From assembly GCF_003018255.1 (NCBI RefSeq), contig NZ_CP027440.1: DNA of 64,000 nucleotides; one strand, given 5' to 3'. A model generated the notes under the pieces. That model had not been told where the DNA came from. It worked only from the letters and a program-made list of their open reading frames with translations, and ran no database searches. Of this stretch, positions 25,843 through 58,489 are shown in pieces; the first letter of the stretch is position 1, and each line of letters starts with the position of its first letter. The position numbers and the translations under genes were made by a program. This DNA is from Escherichia coli (GTDB taxonomy: Bacteria > Pseudomonadota > Gammaproteobacteria > Enterobacterales > Enterobacteriaceae).

Positions 25843-25854
25843 AAATCTACTCCA

Positions 25855-25889
25855 GAAAAAAGAGGGTAGCAGCGTTAACTGCTACCCTC
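25855..25889 (-). terminator. intrinsic terminator in the gltI-gltJ spacer (SroC 3' end)
   Basis: 11-bp stem gagggtagcag / ctgctaccctc (25862-25889), loop cgttaa, U6 on the minus strand (plus A-run 25856-25861) running into the gltJ SD. Confidence 0.8.
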
Positions 25890-26015
25890 GAAGATTGTTA
25901 CCCAGCGTATTGCGGTTTTCAGGCCCGATGGGGAACGACCACCAGGCGTATAGTCTGTCCGTGCTACGTAACAATCGAGAGGGCTGGAATTTCCGCCCCT
26001 GGTTCTTGTAATTAG
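25855..26015 (-). ncRNA. sroC: SroC sRNA region (processed from the gltI-gltJ spacer); ends approximate
   Basis: gltI-gltJ spacer ending in a minus-strand intrinsic terminator; SroC is known to derive from this spacer. Confidence 0.55.
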
Positions 26016-26920
26016 TTCAGTGCCTTGTCATTCGGTTCTTTGAACAGTGCTTTCATTTCGTCTGACAGTTCGAAATTCATGTTCAGGTTTTTCGGCGGAA
26101 TTGGATTTTTGAACCACTTATCAAACCATTTTTCCGCTTCACCGGAGGTCTGCACCTGAGCGATGGTATCATCCATCAGCTTTTTGAACTGCGGATCGTC
26201 TTTACGCAACATGCAACCATAGGCTTCCTGAGACTGCGGCTTGCCGACGATTTCCCAGTTGTCTGGTTTCTTCGCTTTCGCACGTTCACCGGCCAGCAGA
26301 GCATCATCCATCATAAAGGCAACGGCACGACCGCTTTCCAGGGTACGGAAAGAGTCACCGTGATCTTTGGCGCTGATGATGCGCATATTCATTTTTTGCT
26401 CTTCATTCAGTTTGTTGAGCAAAACTTCAGAGGTGGTGCCGGAAGTGACGACTACGGCTTTGCCTTTCAGGTCGGCAAAATCTTTGATATCGCCGCCCTT
26501 TTTGGTCAGCAGGCGCGTACCGACCACGAAAATAGTGTCAGAGAAAGCCGCCTGTTTTTGGCGTTCGGCATTGTTGGTGGTAGAACCGCATTCAAAATCG
26601 AAAGTGCCGTTTTGCAGCAGTGGAATACGGTTTTGTGAGGTGATCGGAATCAATTTCACCTGTAAGTCTGGTTTGTTGAGTTTCTTTTTCACTGCTTCAA
26701 CAATGGCGTTGGAGTAATCCTGCGAGTAGCCCACCACTTTTTGCTGATTGTCGTAATAAGAGAAAGGTACTGAAGATTCACGGTGACCGACGACAATCAC
26801 GCCGTTTTTGGCGATTTTGTCCAGCGTACTGCCTGCTGCCGGGGCGGCGTCATCTGCCTGTGCCAGTCCTGCGGAAAGCGCCAGGGCCAGGATTGCTGTG
26901 GCAGGTTTACGTAATTGCAT
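26012..26920 (-). CDS. gltI: glutamate/aspartate periplasmic binding protein GltI (302 aa)
   Basis: Track ORF is N-extended; known start MQLRKPATAILALALSAGLAQA at 26920 with SD AAGGAG. Confidence 0.93.
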   Translation of the reverse strand: MQLRKPATAILALALSAGLAQADDAAPAAGSTLDKIAKNGVIVVGHRESSVPFSYYDNQQKVVGYSQDYSNAIVEAVKKKLNKPDLQVKLIPITSQNRIPLLQNGTFDFECGSTTNNAERQKQAAFSDTIFVVGTRLLTKKGGDIKDFADLKGKAVVVTSGTTSEVLLNKLNEEQKMNMRIISAKDHGDSFRTLESGRAVAFMMDDALLAGERAKAKKPDNWEIVGKPQSQEAYGCMLRKDDPQFKKLMDDTIAQVQTSGEAEKWFDKWFKNPIPPKNLNMNFELSDEMKALFKEPNDKALN

Positions 26921-36416: not shown

Positions 36417-36491
36417 TGGCTGGGGTACGAGGATTCGAACCTCGGAATGCCGGAATCAGAATCCGGTGCCTTACCGCTTGGCGATACCCCA
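36417..36491 (-). tRNA. glnX: tRNA-Gln (anticodon CUG), 75 nt
   Basis: Full match to the tRNA-Gln cloverleaf with CCA end; anticodon loop UUCUGAU. Confidence 0.95.
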
Positions 36492-36528
36492 ACTGGGTGC
36501 ACTTACAAGGTAAGCGTCTTGAATAAAT

Positions 36529-36603
36529 TGGCTGGGGTACGAGGATTCGAACCTCGGAATGCCGGAATCAGAATCCGGTGCCTTACCGCTTGGCGATACC
36601 CCA
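36529..36603 (-). tRNA. glnV: tRNA-Gln (anticodon CUG), 75 nt
   Basis: Identical copy of the preceding tRNA-Gln(CUG). Confidence 0.95.
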
Positions 36604-36651
36604 ACAAATTGGTTTTTGAATTTGCCGAACATATTCGACACATTCAGAATT

Positions 36652-36728
36652 TGGTGGCTACGACGGGATTCGAACCTGTGACCCCATCATTATGAGTGAT
36701 GTGCTCTAACCAACTGAGCTACGTAGCC
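36652..36728 (-). tRNA. metU: tRNA-Met elongator (anticodon CAU), 77 nt
   Basis: Match to GGCUACGUAGCUCAGUUGGUUAGAGC...CCA, anticodon loop CUCAUAA. Confidence 0.95.
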
Positions 36729-36743
36729 AGATTGTTTCTTCGA

Positions 36744-36818
36744 TGGCTGGGGTACCTGGATTCGAACCAGGGAATGCCGGTATCAAAAACCGGTGCCTTA
36801 CCGCTTGGCGATACCCCA
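36744..36818 (-). tRNA. glnW: tRNA-Gln (anticodon UUG), 75 nt
   Basis: tRNA-Gln body with anticodon loop UUUUGAU. Confidence 0.95.
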
Positions 36819-36852
36819 ATAACCGGGCGGTGAACCGCTTATTCGAAGAATA

Positions 36853-36927
36853 TGGCTGGGGTACCTGGATTCGAACCAGGGAATGCCGGTATCAAAAACC
36901 GGTGCCTTACCGCTTGGCGATACCCCA
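36853..36927 (-). tRNA. glnU: tRNA-Gln (anticodon UUG), 75 nt
   Basis: Identical copy of the preceding tRNA-Gln(UUG). Confidence 0.95.
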
Positions 36928-36950
36928 TCCGTACAACGCTTTCTGGTGAA

Positions 36951-37035
36951 TGGTGCGGGAGGCGAGACTTGAACTCGCACACCTTGCGGCGCCAGAACCT
37001 AAATCTGGTGCGTCTACCAATTTCGCCACTCCCGC
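36951..37035 (-). tRNA. leuW: tRNA-Leu (anticodon UAG), 85 nt
   Basis: Long-variable-arm class II tRNA, anticodon loop AUUUAGG, CCA end. Confidence 0.95.
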
Positions 37036-37043
37036 AAAAAAGA

Positions 37044-37120
37044 TGGTGGCTACGACGGGATTCGAACCTGTGACCCCATCATTATGAGTGATGTGCTCTA
37101 ACCAACTGAGCTACGTAGCC
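37044..37120 (-). tRNA. metT: tRNA-Met elongator (anticodon CAU), 77 nt
   Basis: Identical to metU; first tRNA of the operon. Confidence 0.95.
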
Positions 37121-45939: not shown

Positions 45940-47604
45940 ATGAGTGAGGCAGAAGCCCGCCCGACTAACTTTATTCGTCAGATCATCGATGAAGATCTGG
46001 CCAGTGGTAAGCACACCACAGTACACACCCGTTTCCCGCCGGAGCCGAATGGCTATCTGCATATTGGCCATGCGAAATCTATCTGCCTGAACTTCGGGAT
46101 CGCCCAGGACTATAAAGGCCAGTGCAACCTGCGTTTCGACGACACTAACCCGGTAAAAGAAGATATCGAGTATGTTGAGTCGATCAAAAACGACGTTGAG
46201 TGGTTAGGTTTTCACTGGTCTGGTAACGTCCGTTACTCCTCCGATTATTTTGATCAGCTCCACGCCTATGCGATCGAACTGATCAATAAAGGCCTGGCGT
46301 ACGTTGATGAACTGACACCGGAACAGATCCGCGAATACCGCGGCACCCTGACGCAGCCGGGTAAAAACAGCCCGTACCGCGACCGCAGCGTTGAAGAGAA
46401 CCTGGCGCTGTTCGAAAAAATGCGTACCGGTAGTTTTGAAGAAGGTAAAGCCTGCCTGCGTGCGAAAATCGACATGGCGTCGCCATTTATCGTAATGCGC
46501 GATCCGGTGCTGTACCGCATTAAATTTGCTGAACACCACCAGACTGGCAACAAGTGGTGCATCTACCCGATGTACGACTTCACCCACTGCATCAGCGATG
46601 CGCTGGAAGGTATTACGCACTCTCTGTGTACGCTTGAGTTCCAGGACAACCGCCGTCTGTACGACTGGGTACTGGACAACATCACCATTCCTGTTCACCC
46701 GCGCCAGTACGAATTCTCGCGCCTGAATCTGGAATACACTGTGATGTCCAAGCGTAAGCTGAACCTGCTGGTGACCGATAAGCACGTTGAAGGCTGGGAT
46801 GACCCGCGTATGCCGACCATTTCTGGTCTGCGTCGTCGTGGTTACACTGCGGCTTCTATTCGTGAGTTCTGCAAACGCATTGGTGTGACCAAGCAGGACA
46901 ACACCATTGAGATGGCGTCACTGGAATCCTGCATCCGTGAAGATCTCAACGAAAATGCCCCGCGCGCAATGGCGGTTATCGATCCGGTGAAACTGGTTAT
47001 CGAAAACTACCAGGGCGAAGGCGAAATGGTCACCATGCCGAACCATCCGAACAAACCGGAAATGGGTAGCCGTCAGGTGCCGTTTAGCTGTGAGATTTGG
47101 ATCGATCGCGCCGATTTCCGCGAAGAAGCTAACAAGCAGTACAAACGTCTGGTGTTGGGTAAAGAAGTGCGTCTGCGTAATGCTTACGTGATTAAGGCAG
47201 AACGCGTCGAGAAAGATGCCGAAGGTAATATCACCACCATCTTCTGTACTTATGACGCCGACACCTTAAGCAAAGATCCGGCAGATGGTCGTAAAGTGAA
47301 AGGTGTTATTCACTGGGTGAGCGCGGCACATGCGCTGCCGGTTGAAATCCGTTTGTATGACCGTCTGTTCAGCGTGCCTAACCCAGGTGCTGCGGATGAT
47401 TTCCTGTCGGTGATTAACCCGGAATCGCTGGTGATCAAACAGGGTTTCGCTGAACCGTCGCTGAAAGACGCGGTAGCGGGTAAAGCATTCCAGTTTGAGC
47501 GTGAAGGTTATTTCTGCCTCGACAGCCGCCATTCCACTGCCGAAAAACCGGTATTTAACCGCACCGTAGGGCTGCGTGATACCTGGGCGAAAGTAGGCGA
47601 GTAG
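45940..47604 (+). CDS. glnS: glutaminyl-tRNA synthetase GlnS (554 aa)
   Basis: ORF track; HIGH motif (PNGYLHIGH) and VMSKR. Confidence 0.96.
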
Positions 47605-47619
47605 TTTTAAGTTCTACCA

Positions 47620-47650
47620 GGCCGGGTGAGGCATTTACGCCACATCCGGC
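47620..47650. repeat. REP element downstream of glnS
   Basis: Minus-strand gccggatgtggcgtaaatgcctcacccggcc closely matches the REP consensus. Confidence 0.7.
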
Positions 47651-47671
47651 AAGAAATATGCAAACAATCCC

Positions 47672-47699
47672 AAACGCCGCGCTCTGCGGCGTTTTTTTT
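47672..47699 (+). terminator. intrinsic terminator of glnS
   Basis: acgccgc (47674-47680) gctct gcggcgt (47686-47692) then T8. Confidence 0.8.
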
Positions 47700-48033
47700 C
47701 TGCTTTTCTTCGCGAATTAATTCCGCTTCGCAATTTATCCATAAAACAAATTTAAAATCACAAACCATAATTAAATAAAATGTAACCGTTTTCATCTTAC
47801 TGGAAATTCACGCTTTTATTCTTCTGCAAGCCTTTCAACTGCAAACTTAAGCCTTGTAACAAAAATCATCAAAATATGTGCGGTTGCTCATGTTCTTACA
47901 TTCTGGTTACAGAAAGAGATTGATAATTCGCGTCGCGAAAAATAGTCTGTTCCTGTAGTCAGCGAGACTTTTCTCAACGCTACTTTTTTAATTTTTATTT
48001 TTTTCGCTGTTCACCTTTGGTGCAGCAATTTAT

Positions 48034-48046
48034 ACGTCAAAGAGGA
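48034..48046 (+). promoter_or_regulatory. ChiX sRNA pairing site at the chiP ribosome-binding region
   Basis: ACGTCAAAGAGGA 8 nt upstream of the chiP ATG, complementary to the CCUCUUUGACG segment of ChiX as I recall it. Confidence 0.55.
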
Positions 48047-48053
48047 TTAACCC

Positions 48054-49460
48054 ATGCGTACGTTTAGTGGCAAACGTAGTACGCTGGCGCTGGCTATCGC
48101 CGGTGTTACAGCAATGTCGGGCTTTATGGCAATGCCGGAGGCTCGCGCCGAAGGATTCATCGACGATTCAACCTTAACCGGCGGTATCTATTACTGGCAG
48201 CGTGAACGCGACCGTAAAGATGTTACCGACGGCGACAAATACAAAACCAACCTTTCTCACTCCACCTGGAATGCCAACCTCGATTTTCAGTCCGGTTATG
48301 CTGCTGATATGTTCGGCCTTGATATTGCTGCGTTTACGGCGATTGAAATGGCGGAAAACGGTGACAGCTCTCACCCGAACGAAATCGCGTTTTCAAAAAG
48401 CAATAAAGCCTATGACGAAGACTGGTCCGGCGACAAAAGCGGTATAAGCCTGTATAAAGCAGCGGCCAAATTTAAATACGGTCCGGTGTGGGCGAGGGCA
48501 GGTTACATTCAGCCAACTGGTCAGACGCTGTTAGCGCCGCACTGGAGCTTTATGCCGGGTACTTATCAGGGGGCGGAAGCCGGGGCGAATTTTGATTACG
48601 GCGATGCTGGTGCGTTGAGTTTCTCCTACATGTGGACCAACGAATACAAAGCACCGTGGCATCTCGAAATGGATGAGTTTTATCAGAACGATAAAACTAC
48701 CAAAGTTGATTATCTGCACTCCATCGGTGCGAAGTACGACTTCAAAAATAACTTTGTACTGGAAGCGGCATTTGGTCAGGCGGAAGGGTATATAGATCAA
48801 TATTTTGCCAAAGCCAGCTACAAATTTGATATCGCCGGTAGCCCGTTAACCACCAGCTACCAGTTCTACGGTACGCGCGATAAAGTTGACGATCGCAGCG
48901 TCAACGACATTTACGACGGCACTGCCTGGCTGCAAGCGTTGACCTTTGGTTACCGGGCGGCTGATGTAGTGGATTTGCGTCTGGAAGGCACCTGGGTTAA
49001 AGCCGACGGTCAGCAGGGATACTTCCTGCAACGTATGACTCCAACCTACGCTTCCTCGAACGGTCGCCTGGATATCTGGTGGGATAACCGTTCTGACTTC
49101 AACGCCAACGGCGAAAAAGCGGTCTTCTTCGGTGCGATGTATGACCTGAAAAACTGGAATCTTCCAGGCTTCGCCATCGGCGCTTCCTACGTTTACGCAT
49201 GGGATGCTAAACCTGCGACCTGGCAGAGCAATCCGGATGCGTACTACGACAAAAACCGGACTATTGAAGAGTCTGCCTACAGCCTGGATGCGGTGTACAC
49301 CATTCAGGACGGTCGCGCCAAAGGCACGATGTTCAAACTGCACTTCACCGAATACGACAACCACTCCGACATCCCAAGCTGGGGCGGCGGTTACGGTAAC
49401 ATCTTCCAGGATGAGCGCGACGTGAAATTTATGGTAATCGCACCATTCACCATCTTCTGA
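48054..49460 (+). CDS. chiP: chitoporin ChiP/YbfM (468 aa)
   Basis: ORF track; signal peptide, OprD-like outer-membrane porin. Confidence 0.93.
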
Positions 49461-49509
49461 TGCCCGACGCGGCAGGTTTTGTGCCTGCCGCACATTTGAG
49501 GAATTTGCT

Positions 49510-49836
49510 ATGAAAAAACTGATTCTCATCGCCATGATGGCATCGGGGCTGGTAGCTTGTGCGCAATCAACCGCACCGCAGGAAGACAGTCGTCTGAAAG
49601 AGGCTTACAGCGCCTGTATCAACACCGCGCAAGGTTCGCCGGAAAAAATTGAAGCCTGCCAGAGCGTGTTAAACGTGCTGAAGAAAGAGAAACAACATCA
49701 GCAGTTTGCCGAGCAGGAAAGTGTCCGCGTACTGGATTATCAGCAGTGTATTCAGGCAACGCAAACCGGAAATGATCAGGCGGTGAAAGCCGATTGTGAT
49801 AAGGTCTGGCAGGAAATTCGCAGTAATAACAAATAA
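49510..49836 (+). CDS. chiQ: lipoprotein ChiQ/YbfN (108 aa)
   Basis: ORF track; lipobox LVAC. Confidence 0.9.
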   Translation: MKKLILIAMMASGLVACAQSTAPQEDSRLKEAYSACINTAQGSPEKIEACQSVLNVLKKEKQHQQFAEQESVRVLDYQQCIQATQTGNDQAVKADCDKVWQEIRSNNK

Positions 49837-49876
49837 GTGAGAGCTGTAACTCTCGCTTTTCTTATTTCCCTTGTAT

Positions 49877-49904
49877 AAAAAAGCCAACCTGCAGGTTGGC
49901 TTTT
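49877..49904. terminator. intrinsic terminator between convergent chiQ and fur
   Basis: Perfect 20-nt palindrome agccaacctgcaggttggct (49882-49901) flanked by an A-run and a T-run. Confidence 0.8.
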
Positions 49905-49919
49905 CTCGTTCAGGCTGGC

Positions 49920-50366
49920 TTATTTGCCTTCGTGCGCGTGCTCATCTTCGCGGCAATCGCCTTCGGCACAGTGACCGTAAAGATAGAGACTGTGGTTAGT
50001 CAGGCGAATGCCATGTTTTGCGGCGATTTCACGCTGACGCGCTTCGATGGAATCATCACTAAATTCGATAACCTTGCCGCAGTCGAGGCAGATCAGGTGA
50101 TCGTGGTGATGTTGCTGTGTCAGTTCAAATACGGATTTACCGCCTTCAAAATTGTGGCGGGTGACGATACCAGCATCGTCAAACTGGTTCAGTACGCGAT
50201 ATACCGTAGCCAGACCAATTTCTTCACCCATATCGATCAGACGTTTGTATAAATCTTCCGCACTGACGTGATGGTTGTCCGGCTCCTGAAGAACTTCCAG
50301 GATTTTTAAACGAGGAAGCGTTACTTTCAGGCCAGCTTTCTTTAGGGCGGTATTGTTATCAGTCAT
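49920..50366 (-). CDS. fur: ferric uptake regulator Fur (148 aa)
   Basis: ORF track; MTDNNTALKKAGLKVTLPRLKILEVL. Confidence 0.97.
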   Translation of the reverse strand: MTDNNTALKKAGLKVTLPRLKILEVLQEPDNHHVSAEDLYKRLIDMGEEIGLATVYRVLNQFDDAGIVTRHNFEGGKSVFELTQQHHHDHLICLDCGKVIEFSDDSIEARQREIAAKHGIRLTNHSLYLYGHCAEGDCREDEHAHEGK

Positions 50367-50445
50367 GCGGAATCTGTCCTGTTACTAAGCGGTTCACTTC
50401 ATTAGGAGAAGTGACAGAATTTGCTCTTGAGATAATGCGTATCAT
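50359..50445 (-). CDS. uof: uof, 28-codon leader ORF translationally coupled to fur
   Basis: MIRIISRANSVTSPNEVNRLVTGQIPHD; its stop TGA overlaps the fur ATG (ATGACTGA). Confidence 0.75.
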   Translation of the reverse strand: MIRIISRANSVTSPNEVNRLVTGQIPHD

Positions 50446-56294: not shown

Positions 56295-58489
56295 AATTTT
56301 TCCCCTTTCAACAGGGTGCTTTGCGCATCACGAGGCTTGATGACATAGCACCAAACTTGCTTACGACCATCATGTTCTTCGATATAGACACCCTGCAGCT
56401 CTGGTGCAAAACCTGGCAGCAGGTTGATCCCTTCTTCCAGAGCGCTGAAGTAACGCAGAACAGCACCACCCCAGATTTCACCCGGAACAACACACAGCAC
56501 ACCCGGAGGATAAGGAAGCGCACCTTCGGCAGCGATACGGCCTTCTGCATCCGGCAGACGAACCAGCTCCACTTCATCGCGTAAATAGGCGTAGTTGGCT
56601 TCTTGTGGATTCATGCTTACGCGTGGGAAGTGTTCCTTACGGAACATCTCTTTTTGCAGTTGTTTCACGTTGTGACGGGCATACAAATCATGCATTTCCT
56701 GACACAACTGACGCAGGGTATAACCGGTGTAGCGCTCTTCATGCTGTTTGTAGATGGAAGGCAGTACTTCTGATAATGGCGCGTCGGACTCAAGCAGTTT
56801 TTCGAAGCGTACCAGCAGAGCAACAAGTTGCTGAAGTTTGGCCATATCTTCTGCCGGAGTCAGCAGAAAGAGGATGGAGTTAAGATCGCATTTTTCCGGC
56901 ACTACGCCATTTTCGCGCAGGAAGTTAGCAAGAATCGTCGCGGGTACACCGAACGCTTCATATTCGCCGTTACGTGCATCAATACCTGGGGTTGTCAGCA
57001 ACAGTTTGCACGGATCGACAAAGTATTGATTCTCTGCATAGCCTTCAAAAGAATGCCAGTGCTCACCTGGTACAAACTGGAAGAAGCGCAGATCAACCGC
57101 AATTTGCGCCGTTTCATACGACTGCCAGGGTTTACCATCCACCAGTTCAGGTACGAATGGACGAATATGCTGACAGTTATCGAGGATTAGTTTGCGGGCA
57201 TTAATGCCATTTACCACACAATCCATCCACATATTACGACCGCTGACACCTTCATGCATTTTGGCGTTGATATCCAGTGCGGCAAACAGCGGATAGAACG
57301 GGCTGGTGGAGGCATGCATCATAAAGGCGTTGTTCATGCGTTTGTGCGGTACATAACGCTGTTGCCCTTTGATATGGCTGTCTTTTTTATGGATTTGTGA
57401 AGTCTGGGAAAAACCAGCCTGCTGTTTATGCACAGATTGCGTAACCAGAATACCCGGATCGTTCTCATTAAGATCCAGCAACAGTGGTGAACAGTCCGCC
57501 ATCATCGGGATAAACTGCTCATAGCCGACCCATGCGGAGTCAAAGAGGATGTAGTCACACAGATGACCAATTTTATCCACCACCTGACGGGCGTTATAAA
57601 TCGTACCGTCGTAAGTGCCTAGCTGAATAACGGCGAGGCGGAAAGGACGAGCCTCTTTTGCCCGCTGCGGTGCGAATTCCGCGATCAGTTCACGCAGGTA
57701 ACTTTCTTCAAAACAGTGAGCGTCAATACCACCGATAAAACCATACGGGTTACGTGCGGTTTCCAGATAAACCGGTGTCGCGCCAGCCTGTAGCAACGCT
57801 CCGTGGTGGTTAGATTTGTGGTTATTGCGGTCAAACAGCACCAGATCACCCGGTGTCAGCAGGGCGTTTAAAACCACTTTGTTAGAAGATGAAGTGCCAT
57901 TTAAAACGAAGTATGTTTTATCGGCATTAAACACTTTTGCCGCATGTTGCTGTGCAATGCATGGCGCGCCTTCGTGAATCAGCAGATCGCCCATCGCTAC
58001 GTCGGCGTTGCACAAGTCAGCACGGAACAGCGCCTCACCAAAGTATTCCACAAACTGATTCCCCGCGGGATGGCGACGGAAAAATTCGCCGCCCTGATGA
58101 CCGGGGCAATCAAACGCGCTGTTACCCTGATTGACATAATCGACCAGTGCGCGGAAGAAGGGCGGGCGCAGTTGCGTTTCATAATGGCTGGCTGCGGTTT
58201 CTAACTGACGACCATAAAATTCTCGTCGCGATTCGCAATTCTCAAAGACACCCGAAATACGGGGCAAATACTCTGCGGGTACACGTTCTTGATTTTCAGT
58301 AGCAATAAATACCGGGATGCCATAACCCGTGGCATCGATTTCATCGAGTTTTCCGCGTGTAACATCGTTGAGCGATAAAACTATTGCCGCCACATCGATA
58401 TTACTGTTTTCATTAATATAGATACATTCTCGCTGCGTGGTAAAACAGTCCGGGCAAGAATCACTAACCGCAATTTTTAATTTTGACAT
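56291..58489 (-). CDS. speF: inducible ornithine decarboxylase SpeF (732 aa)
   Basis: Track ORF is N-extended; known start MSKLKIAVSDSCPDCF at 58489. Confidence 0.95.
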   Translation of the reverse strand: MSKLKIAVSDSCPDCFTTQRECIYINENSNIDVAAIVLSLNDVTRGKLDEIDATGYGIPVFIATENQERVPAEYLPRISGVFENCESRREFYGRQLETAASHYETQLRPPFFRALVDYVNQGNSAFDCPGHQGGEFFRRHPAGNQFVEYFGEALFRADLCNADVAMGDLLIHEGAPCIAQQHAAKVFNADKTYFVLNGTSSSNKVVLNALLTPGDLVLFDRNNHKSNHHGALLQAGATPVYLETARNPYGFIGGIDAHCFEESYLRELIAEFAPQRAKEARPFRLAVIQLGTYDGTIYNARQVVDKIGHLCDYILFDSAWVGYEQFIPMMADCSPLLLDLNENDPGILVTQSVHKQQAGFSQTSQIHKKDSHIKGQQRYVPHKRMNNAFMMHASTSPFYPLFAALDINAKMHEGVSGRNMWMDCVVNGINARKLILDNCQHIRPFVPELVDGKPWQSYETAQIAVDLRFFQFVPGEHWHSFEGYAENQYFVDPCKLLLTTPGIDARNGEYEAFGVPATILANFLRENGVVPEKCDLNSILFLLTPAEDMAKLQQLVALLVRFEKLLESDAPLSEVLPSIYKQHEERYTGYTLRQLCQEMHDLYARHNVKQLQKEMFRKEHFPRVSMNPQEANYAYLRDEVELVRLPDAEGRIAAEGALPYPPGVLCVVPGEIWGGAVLRYFSALEEGINLLPGFAPELQGVYIEEHDGRKQVWCYVIKPRDAQSTLLKGEKL

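Follow-up and report, generated by a model that had tools for sequence, protein, structure and literature searches.

The leader of the chiP mRNA in a 64-kb stretch of Escherichia coli DNA (hereafter the window, in whose numbering positions are given unless K-12 is named) very probably carries a target site for the small RNA ChiX at 48035–48046, a reading to which we assign a probability of roughly 96%. It draws upon the complementarity between the two RNAs, their accessibility, the uniqueness of the site in the window, its conservation among related genera, and the identity of the surrounding leader with its K-12 counterpart, all observed in the present analysis. An initial annotation, made from the raw sequence, had proposed the segment 48034–48046 as the place where ChiX silences chiP; the observation is confirmed, and the interpretation put upon it is supported. 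The ChiX–chiP site found here has already been described in detail. The pair formed by ChiX (also MicM, SroB or RybC) and chiP (ybfM) in K-12 and Salmonella shares with it the gene, the 12-nt site, the position on the Shine-Dalgarno and the sRNA sequence (as found in the closest genome), and no functional difference is apparent, the leader U-run being one U longer (7 vs 6). Starting from sequence alone, the case thus arrives again at an sRNA–mRNA pair that ranks among the best characterised in E. coli, and its value is that of a positive control in which the ChiX sequence given by the initial annotation proved right and the coordinates exact. The analysis also adds chiZ, the chiP promoter and the mapped 3' end of chiPQ to the annotation of the window (Table 1).

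The ChiX pairing site

The segment initially singled out, ACGTCAAAGAGGA, occupies 48034–48046 on the plus strand, ahead of the chiP ATG at 48054–48056. Its last 12 bases, CGTCAAAGAGGA (48035–48046), are the exact reverse complement of ChiX nucleotides 45–56 (UCCUCUUUGACG; 12/12), and A48034 stands opposite ChiX G57 without pairing. Twelve of the 13 quoted bases therefore pair (48035–48046 with ChiX 56–45), and the 13-nt complementarity first claimed holds for these and fails for A48034. The Shine-Dalgarno sequence GAGGA (48042–48046) lies inside the site and is separated from the ATG by a 7-nt spacer (48047–48053), in agreement with the earlier statement that the match spans the chiP Shine-Dalgarno 8 nt before the start codon. 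Equally, the ChiX segment cited by the initial annotation, CCUCUUUGACG, is real and corresponds to ChiX nt 46–56 in both E. coli O157 and strain JNE112863.

The ChiX gene itself (RF00368) was absent from the 64-kb window in an Rfam scan. A ChiX query sequence had its match in the interval from ybaK to ybaP in 5,422 of the 5,426 complete E. coli genomes, and the copies taken from O157 (L001 401–484) and JNE112863 (L003 36193–36276) are identical in sequence, both scoring 82.1 bits as Rfam RF00368 sroB against a gathering score of 44. Two genomes share the highest identity to the window, 99.9% across the 2.8 kb that was aligned, and JNE112863 is one of them; the presence of ChiX together with this window rests upon this closest complete genome, in which chiX lies ~188 kb from chiP. 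Within the sRNA, nt 58–75 form the terminator hairpin, and the pairing segment (nt 45–56) is single-stranded and located just 5' of it.

Local duplex prediction assigns the 12-bp ChiX–chiP helix an energy of -18.6 kcal/mol, or -21.0 kcal/mol with dangling ends. Co-folding of ChiX with the leader (transcription start to +60) produced exactly 12 intermolecular pairs, 48035–48046 with ChiX 56–45, at a ddG of -19.4 kcal/mol. Opening energies indicate that both partners are accessible at the site, at a cost of 0.94 kcal/mol for ChiX 45–56 and, depending on which of three leader contexts is folded, 1.9–2.6 kcal/mol for the target. Whole-molecule duplex prediction, applied to ChiX and 180 nt of leader, yielded an implausible duplex of 76 nt and was set aside in favour of local duplexes, opening energies and the co-fold.

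Specificity was assessed by scanning ChiX nt 23–57 against 25,584 overlapping 40-nt windows from both strands of the 64 kb, whereupon the chiP site emerged as the sole best (-21.0 kcal/mol vs a mean of -7.1, sd 2.5); it was likewise the unique best with ChiX nt 41–56. Among 105 ORF starts the chiP start region ranked first, the next reaching -14.8 kcal/mol, and none of 2000 shuffles attained its score. When pairing was extended to ChiX nt 57–60, which belong to the terminator stem, the window offered 12 further G+C-rich places with an equal or better raw duplex energy, so duplex energy alone is not specific; these places, found with ChiX nt 37–60 and relying upon GGGCC pairing, are judged an artefact because nt 58–75 constitute the ChiX terminator hairpin. 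The 12-mer CGTCAAAGAGGA has a single copy in the window, and two matches (0.23 expected) when up to one mismatch is tolerated; the one-mismatch copy AGTCAAAGAGGA at 57538–57549 (+) was rejected, as it lies antisense within a 758-aa minus-strand ORF and bears no functional sign. Complements of 12 nt to any part of ChiX number two in 128 kb against ~0.56 expected, which makes the bare 12-mer count weak evidence when taken alone, and the second of the two, a 12-nt match to ChiX nt 26–37 at 3501 (-), was dismissed as a low-complexity A/T run.

The start of chiQ, the second gene of the operon, was also considered as a ChiX target. Its Shine-Dalgarno region GAGGAATTT holds a 9-nt complement, GAGGAAUUU (49498–49506), of ChiX nt 41–49, which at -14.2 kcal/mol ranks fourth of the 105 start regions. 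Among 71 sequences in which chiQ was located this complement is present only in the window, and chiQ was rejected as a second target, the match probably having arisen by chance.

Conservation was examined in 80 Enterobacteriaceae chiP loci (83–99% amino-acid identity) collected by a protein-anchored scan of species-representative genomes, 79 of which had enough upstream sequence for a leader comparison. The core GTCAAAGAGGA is kept in 73 of the 79 leaders and the full 12-mer in 49, and the 7-nt spacing between site and ATG recurs in 73 of the 80 leaders compared, window included. In the leader alignment, positions 48036–48046 are at least 90% identical, with flanks mostly at 20–70%. A deviant core was seen in six of the 79 leaders. 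Five, from Kosakonia and related genomes (L048, L049, L057, L058, L064), read CGTC[C/T]AGAAGGA ~20 nt before the chiP ATG, and the sixth, from a Leclercia MAG (L051), has CGTCAATGAGGA at the ChiX site. With canonical ChiX these deviant leaders are predicted to reach only -13 to -15 kcal/mol, vs -21, so that the Kosakonia-type variant predicts either a co-varying ChiX seed or a weakened or lost ChiX control. A metagenome scan for a correspondingly compensated ChiX (AATTCCTNNTRGACNGGCC) hit at least 120 unrelated stretches, with no ChiX-like terminator among the matches listed.

Table 1. Features of the chiP–chiQ locus, in window coordinates
Feature	Position	Strand	Evidence
ChiX pairing site CGTCAAAGAGGA, including Shine-Dalgarno GAGGA	48035..48046	+	12-nt complement, co-fold, accessibility, best site in window, conservation
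chiP/chiZ promoter: -35 TTGATA 47920–47925, 17-nt spacer, -10 TAGTCT 47943–47948	47920..47948	+	Sequence, published 5' end
chiP 5' UTR, equivalent to sRNA ChiZ, a ChiX sponge	47955..48053	+	99 nt here vs 98 nt in K-12 b4808
U/A-rich tract UUUUUUAAUUUUUAUUUUUUU, candidate Hfq rim-binding site	47984..48004	+	21 nt, unpaired in all predicted folds
chiP CDS, 468 aa, chitoporin	48054..49460	+	ORF; RefSeq annotation of 99.9% identical genome
Hairpin ACGUUU-AGUGGC-AAACGU (6-bp stem), chiP codons 3–8	48060..48077	+	Appears in predicted folds
C-rich, G-poor stretch in chiP, candidate rut region	48190..48344	+	GC skew -0.20 to -0.35 over 48190–48329
chiQ, 108-aa lipoprotein, second gene of operon	49510..49836	+	ORF and annotation
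First hairpin after chiQ, terminator-like: 9-bp stem 49835–49858, then UUCUUAUUU	49835..49867	+	Terminator pattern scan, fold
Palindromic terminator common to chiPQ (+) and fur (-)	49877..49907	both	Fold, K-12 Term-seq

The leader, ChiZ and the mode of silencing

From 47900 to 48090, a segment including the chiP promoter and the chiZ/chiP leader, the window equals K-12 MG1655 except for one extra T, located in the leader U-run (47998–48004), which has seven T here and six in both K-12 and Salmonella. The silencing of chiP by ChiX, which the initial annotation invoked as known, applies to a documented pairing site within a leader that departs from K-12 by this single T, and the leader also matches the chiP RNA used in an in vitro annealing study in which Hfq catalysed the ChiX–chiP association (PMC5606850). 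The published 5' end GUAGUCAGC places the transcription start at G47955. Upstream of it, the promoter block exceeds the rest of the region in conservation among 75 distinct orthologous leaders, and its spacer contains a perfect palindrome, TTCGCG-T-CGCGAA (TTCGCGTCGCGAA, 47927–47939), a candidate NagC operator. Further upstream, a 10-bp G+C-rich hairpin resembling a glnS terminator, AAACGCCGCG-CTC-TGCGGCGTTT followed by T7 (47672–47694, ~70 nt past the glnS stop), separates glnS from the chiP promoter.

The ChiX site lies within a stretch corresponding to the annotated sRNA ChiZ (47955–48053), which the initial annotation overlooked. In K-12 RefSeq the ncRNA chiZ (b4808) occupies 708236–708333, directly before chiP, and aligns to these positions with one inserted T. 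ChiZ was described by Adams et al. 2021 as a 5' UTR-derived, Hfq-dependent RNA of ~90 nt which carries the ChiX site and sponges ChiX, and its 3' end was mapped by Term-seq to K-12 position 708334, the A of the chiP ATG, equivalent to 48054 here (PMC7815308). The window stretch is orthologous and contains the ChiX site, whereas the ChiZ 3' end and its Rho dependence were measured, by northern blots and Term-seq, in K-12 only. As class II sRNA targets bind the Hfq rim and ChiX is a class II sRNA (PMC5606850), the U/A-rich tract in the middle of the leader is a plausible rim-binding site.

In the mechanism proposed for this locus, ChiX, an 84-nt, Hfq-dependent, constitutive sRNA encoded ~188 kb away between ybaK and ybaP, would pair through UCCUCUUUGACG with leader CGUCAAAGAGGA to form a 12-bp helix over the chiP Shine-Dalgarno. 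This helix would block binding of the 30S subunit, leaving chiP untranslated and its mRNA prone to degradation, as reported for ChiX bound at the ribosome-binding site, where translation is inhibited and chiP mRNA decay triggered (PMC6582626). With no ribosomes behind the polymerase, Rho would load onto the naked early coding region and terminate within chiP, so that chiQ would be switched off as well; according to the summary of Bossi 2012 given in PMC6582626, ribosome loss indeed exposes an intragenic rut site and Rho polarity silences chiQ. The leader, released as the ~98-nt ChiZ, would then present the same site in trans and titrate ChiX, as would the chitobiose-induced chbBC transcript, and NagC would repress the promoter. 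The induced chb transcript has been characterised as a decoy leading to the destruction of ChiX, and NagC as a repressor of chiP transcription (PMC4098024). That this locus is subject to translational block, mRNA decay, Rho-dependent polarity, sponging of ChiX and control by NagC is carried over from published work on sequences identical to it or nearly so. For the U-rich tract, the C-rich patch and the promoter palindrome, on the other hand, we infer roles from sequence.

The chbBC intergenic decoy, located outside this window, titrates ChiX by means of a complementary site that imitates the one on chiP, but it promotes ChiX decay, whereas the chiP site is itself silenced. In the Spot 42–galK and MicA–ompA pairs the sRNA also pairs at or near the ribosome-binding site, as ChiX does, and Spot 42 shares the Rho-dependent polarity; these are nonetheless other sRNAs with other targets, whereas ChiX is a class II, constitutive and decoy-controlled sRNA.

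Two alternative views of the site deserve consideration. The match might be a by-product of the anti-Shine-Dalgarno-like CCUC in ChiX, with which every strong Shine-Dalgarno would form some pairs, the block being kept merely as a ribosome-binding site, and the non-conserved 9-nt complement at the chiQ start shows that partial matches centred on a Shine-Dalgarno do arise by chance. The window also holds 23 matches of 10 nt to one part or another of ChiX, against ~9 expected. Yet the chiP site comprises 12 contiguous pairs reaching 7 nt upstream of GAGGA, its non-Shine-Dalgarno half GTCAAA (48036–48041) is more than 90% conserved between flanks that both vary, and its energy surpasses that of every other start region by 6 kcal/mol. 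Furthermore, according to the text of PMC7815308 in which Figueroa-Bossi 2009 and Overgaard 2009 are cited, ChiX–chiP pairing on this sequence was proved by compensatory mutations in both K-12 and Salmonella. Hfq-dependent repression in vivo, lost when the site is mutated and regained with compensatory changes in ChiX, is reported for these two organisms (PMC7815308, PMC6582626). Loss of ChiX repression upon changing GTCAAA while keeping GAGGA has already been reported in model strains. The length of the helix, the conservation outside the Shine-Dalgarno, the 6 kcal/mol gap and the published compensatory mutations together exclude a chance or Shine-Dalgarno-only match, and we consider this explanation extremely improbable.

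Alternatively, the site might act mainly in trans, with the ChiZ sponge setting ChiX levels and the silencing of chiP a secondary effect. The K-12 annotation includes ChiZ, which spans the ChiX site, ChiZ overexpression raises chiP mRNA and lowers ChiX (PMC7815308), and an Hfq-bound fragment of the chiP ribosome-binding site builds up in the absence of PNPase (PMC7145675). However, deletion of chiX strongly increases ChiZ (PMC7815308), identifying ChiZ as a product of the unrepressed state, and the effect in cis is large, chiP being essentially silent when ChiX is present (PMC6582626, PMC4098024). The two roles are moreover compatible and both are published, and a site acting chiefly as a sponge is given next to no weight here; direct targeting of the chiP leader by ChiX remains the preferred reading.

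The coding region downstream of the site

The 2.8 kb surrounding the site matched 5,424 of the 5,426 complete E. coli genomes, where it is annotated as glnS, chiP (chitoporin), chiQ, fur and uof. Only four of these 5,424 are at least 99% identical to the window over 47600–50400, the others falling at 95–99% (~98% among the matches listed), which indicates that the window derives from a sparsely sampled E. coli lineage; its closest relatives over this interval are strains JNE23-011 and JNE112863, both 99.9% identical.

Synonymous positions at the beginning of chiP are unusually constant. Third-position identity among 79 distinct sequences is 0.84–1.00 in codons 2–14 (codon 4: 0.71), against 0.14–0.82 in codons 15–45, and these near-invariant synonymous sites suggest that constraint acts on the RNA immediately past the 3' end of ChiZ. 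An RNA element in these first codons could act by fixing the 3' end of ChiZ at the ATG, by adjusting the initiation of translation or by governing the entry of Rho. The two-part proposition that 48054–48095, with its hairpin, is an undescribed RNA element and that the Kosakonia-type variant reflects a co-evolved ChiX seed or lost ChiX control is, taken as a whole, rather doubtful. Further into chiP, the C-rich, G-poor patch may act as the rut region. The K-12 region of Rho termination peaks at 708624 (Rho score 4.4, p 1e-11; PMC7815308 supplementary file 2), 290 nt into the chiP ORF and equivalent to 48344 here; the C-rich patch precedes this peak, a position that would fit the polarity mechanism. 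A strong 8-bp hairpin, GCGGCAGG-UUUUGUG-CCUGCCGC (49469–49491), occupies the 49-nt chiP–chiQ spacer just before the chiQ Shine-Dalgarno, and its CCTGCCGC arm recurs in many orthologues.

Hairpins after chiQ

The initial annotation had further described chiP–chiQ as ending with two terminators, and both structures exist: a 7-bp stem with one G-U pair (GTGAGAG/CTCTCGC at 49837–49856, followed by TTCTTATTT) and, at 49877–49904, the bidirectional palindrome AAAAAAGCCAACCTGCAGGTTGGCTTTT. Of the two, the palindrome alone matches a Term-seq 3' end listed for K-12, so the hairpins stand as described but the designation of both as terminators does so only in part. The first hairpin, whose stem extends to 9 bp at 49835–49858, folds at -11.6 kcal/mol (z -4.0), with four G-C pairs and an interrupted U-run. 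The palindrome folds at -15.6 kcal/mol on the plus strand and -17.9 kcal/mol on the minus strand (z about -5), and consists of a 7-bp GC-rich stem with an A-U extension, followed by UUUUCUC on the plus strand and by UUUUUU on the minus strand, where it ends fur. The chiQ–fur spacer differs from K-12 by two single bases, at 49874 and at 49890 in the palindrome loop; the latter, a C in K-12 and a T here, creates a perfect 18-nt palindrome, GCCAACCTGCAGGTTGGC.

In K-12 a plus-strand Term-seq 3' end at 710187, listed in two entries which we take to be two growth conditions, corresponds to 49907, past the palindrome. The portion of the K-12 table text available to us lists no Term-seq 3' end at 710130–710169, the interval of the first hairpin, whose sequence is identical in K-12. 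Taken together, the end at 49907 and the lack of a listed end at the first hairpin identify the palindrome as the mapped end of chiPQ, and the first hairpin may be a leaky terminator or a stabiliser. The converse arrangement, in which chiPQ truly terminates at the first hairpin and the palindrome acts for fur alone, gains some credence from the fact that this hairpin matches the terminator pattern and folds well, and from the occurrence of a hairpin directly after chiQ in most orthologues. Of 68 loci folded, 14 orthologue tails were inspected; the two-hairpin layout recurs among them, and the first hairpin is often stronger there, forming a strong canonical terminator in Citrobacter and a longer stem in E. 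albertii and E. whittamii. The converse arrangement is nevertheless unlikely, given the weak stem and interrupted U-run of the first hairpin and, in K-12, a mapped end past the palindrome together with the lack of a listed one at the identical first hairpin; the palindrome is accordingly retained as the chiPQ end.

Elsewhere in the window, Rfam models matched SroC at 25854–26016 (-; 172.6 bits), a cspA-type thermoregulator leader at 4602–5050 (+; 136.1 bits) and a cluster of seven tRNA genes at 36420–37120 (-).
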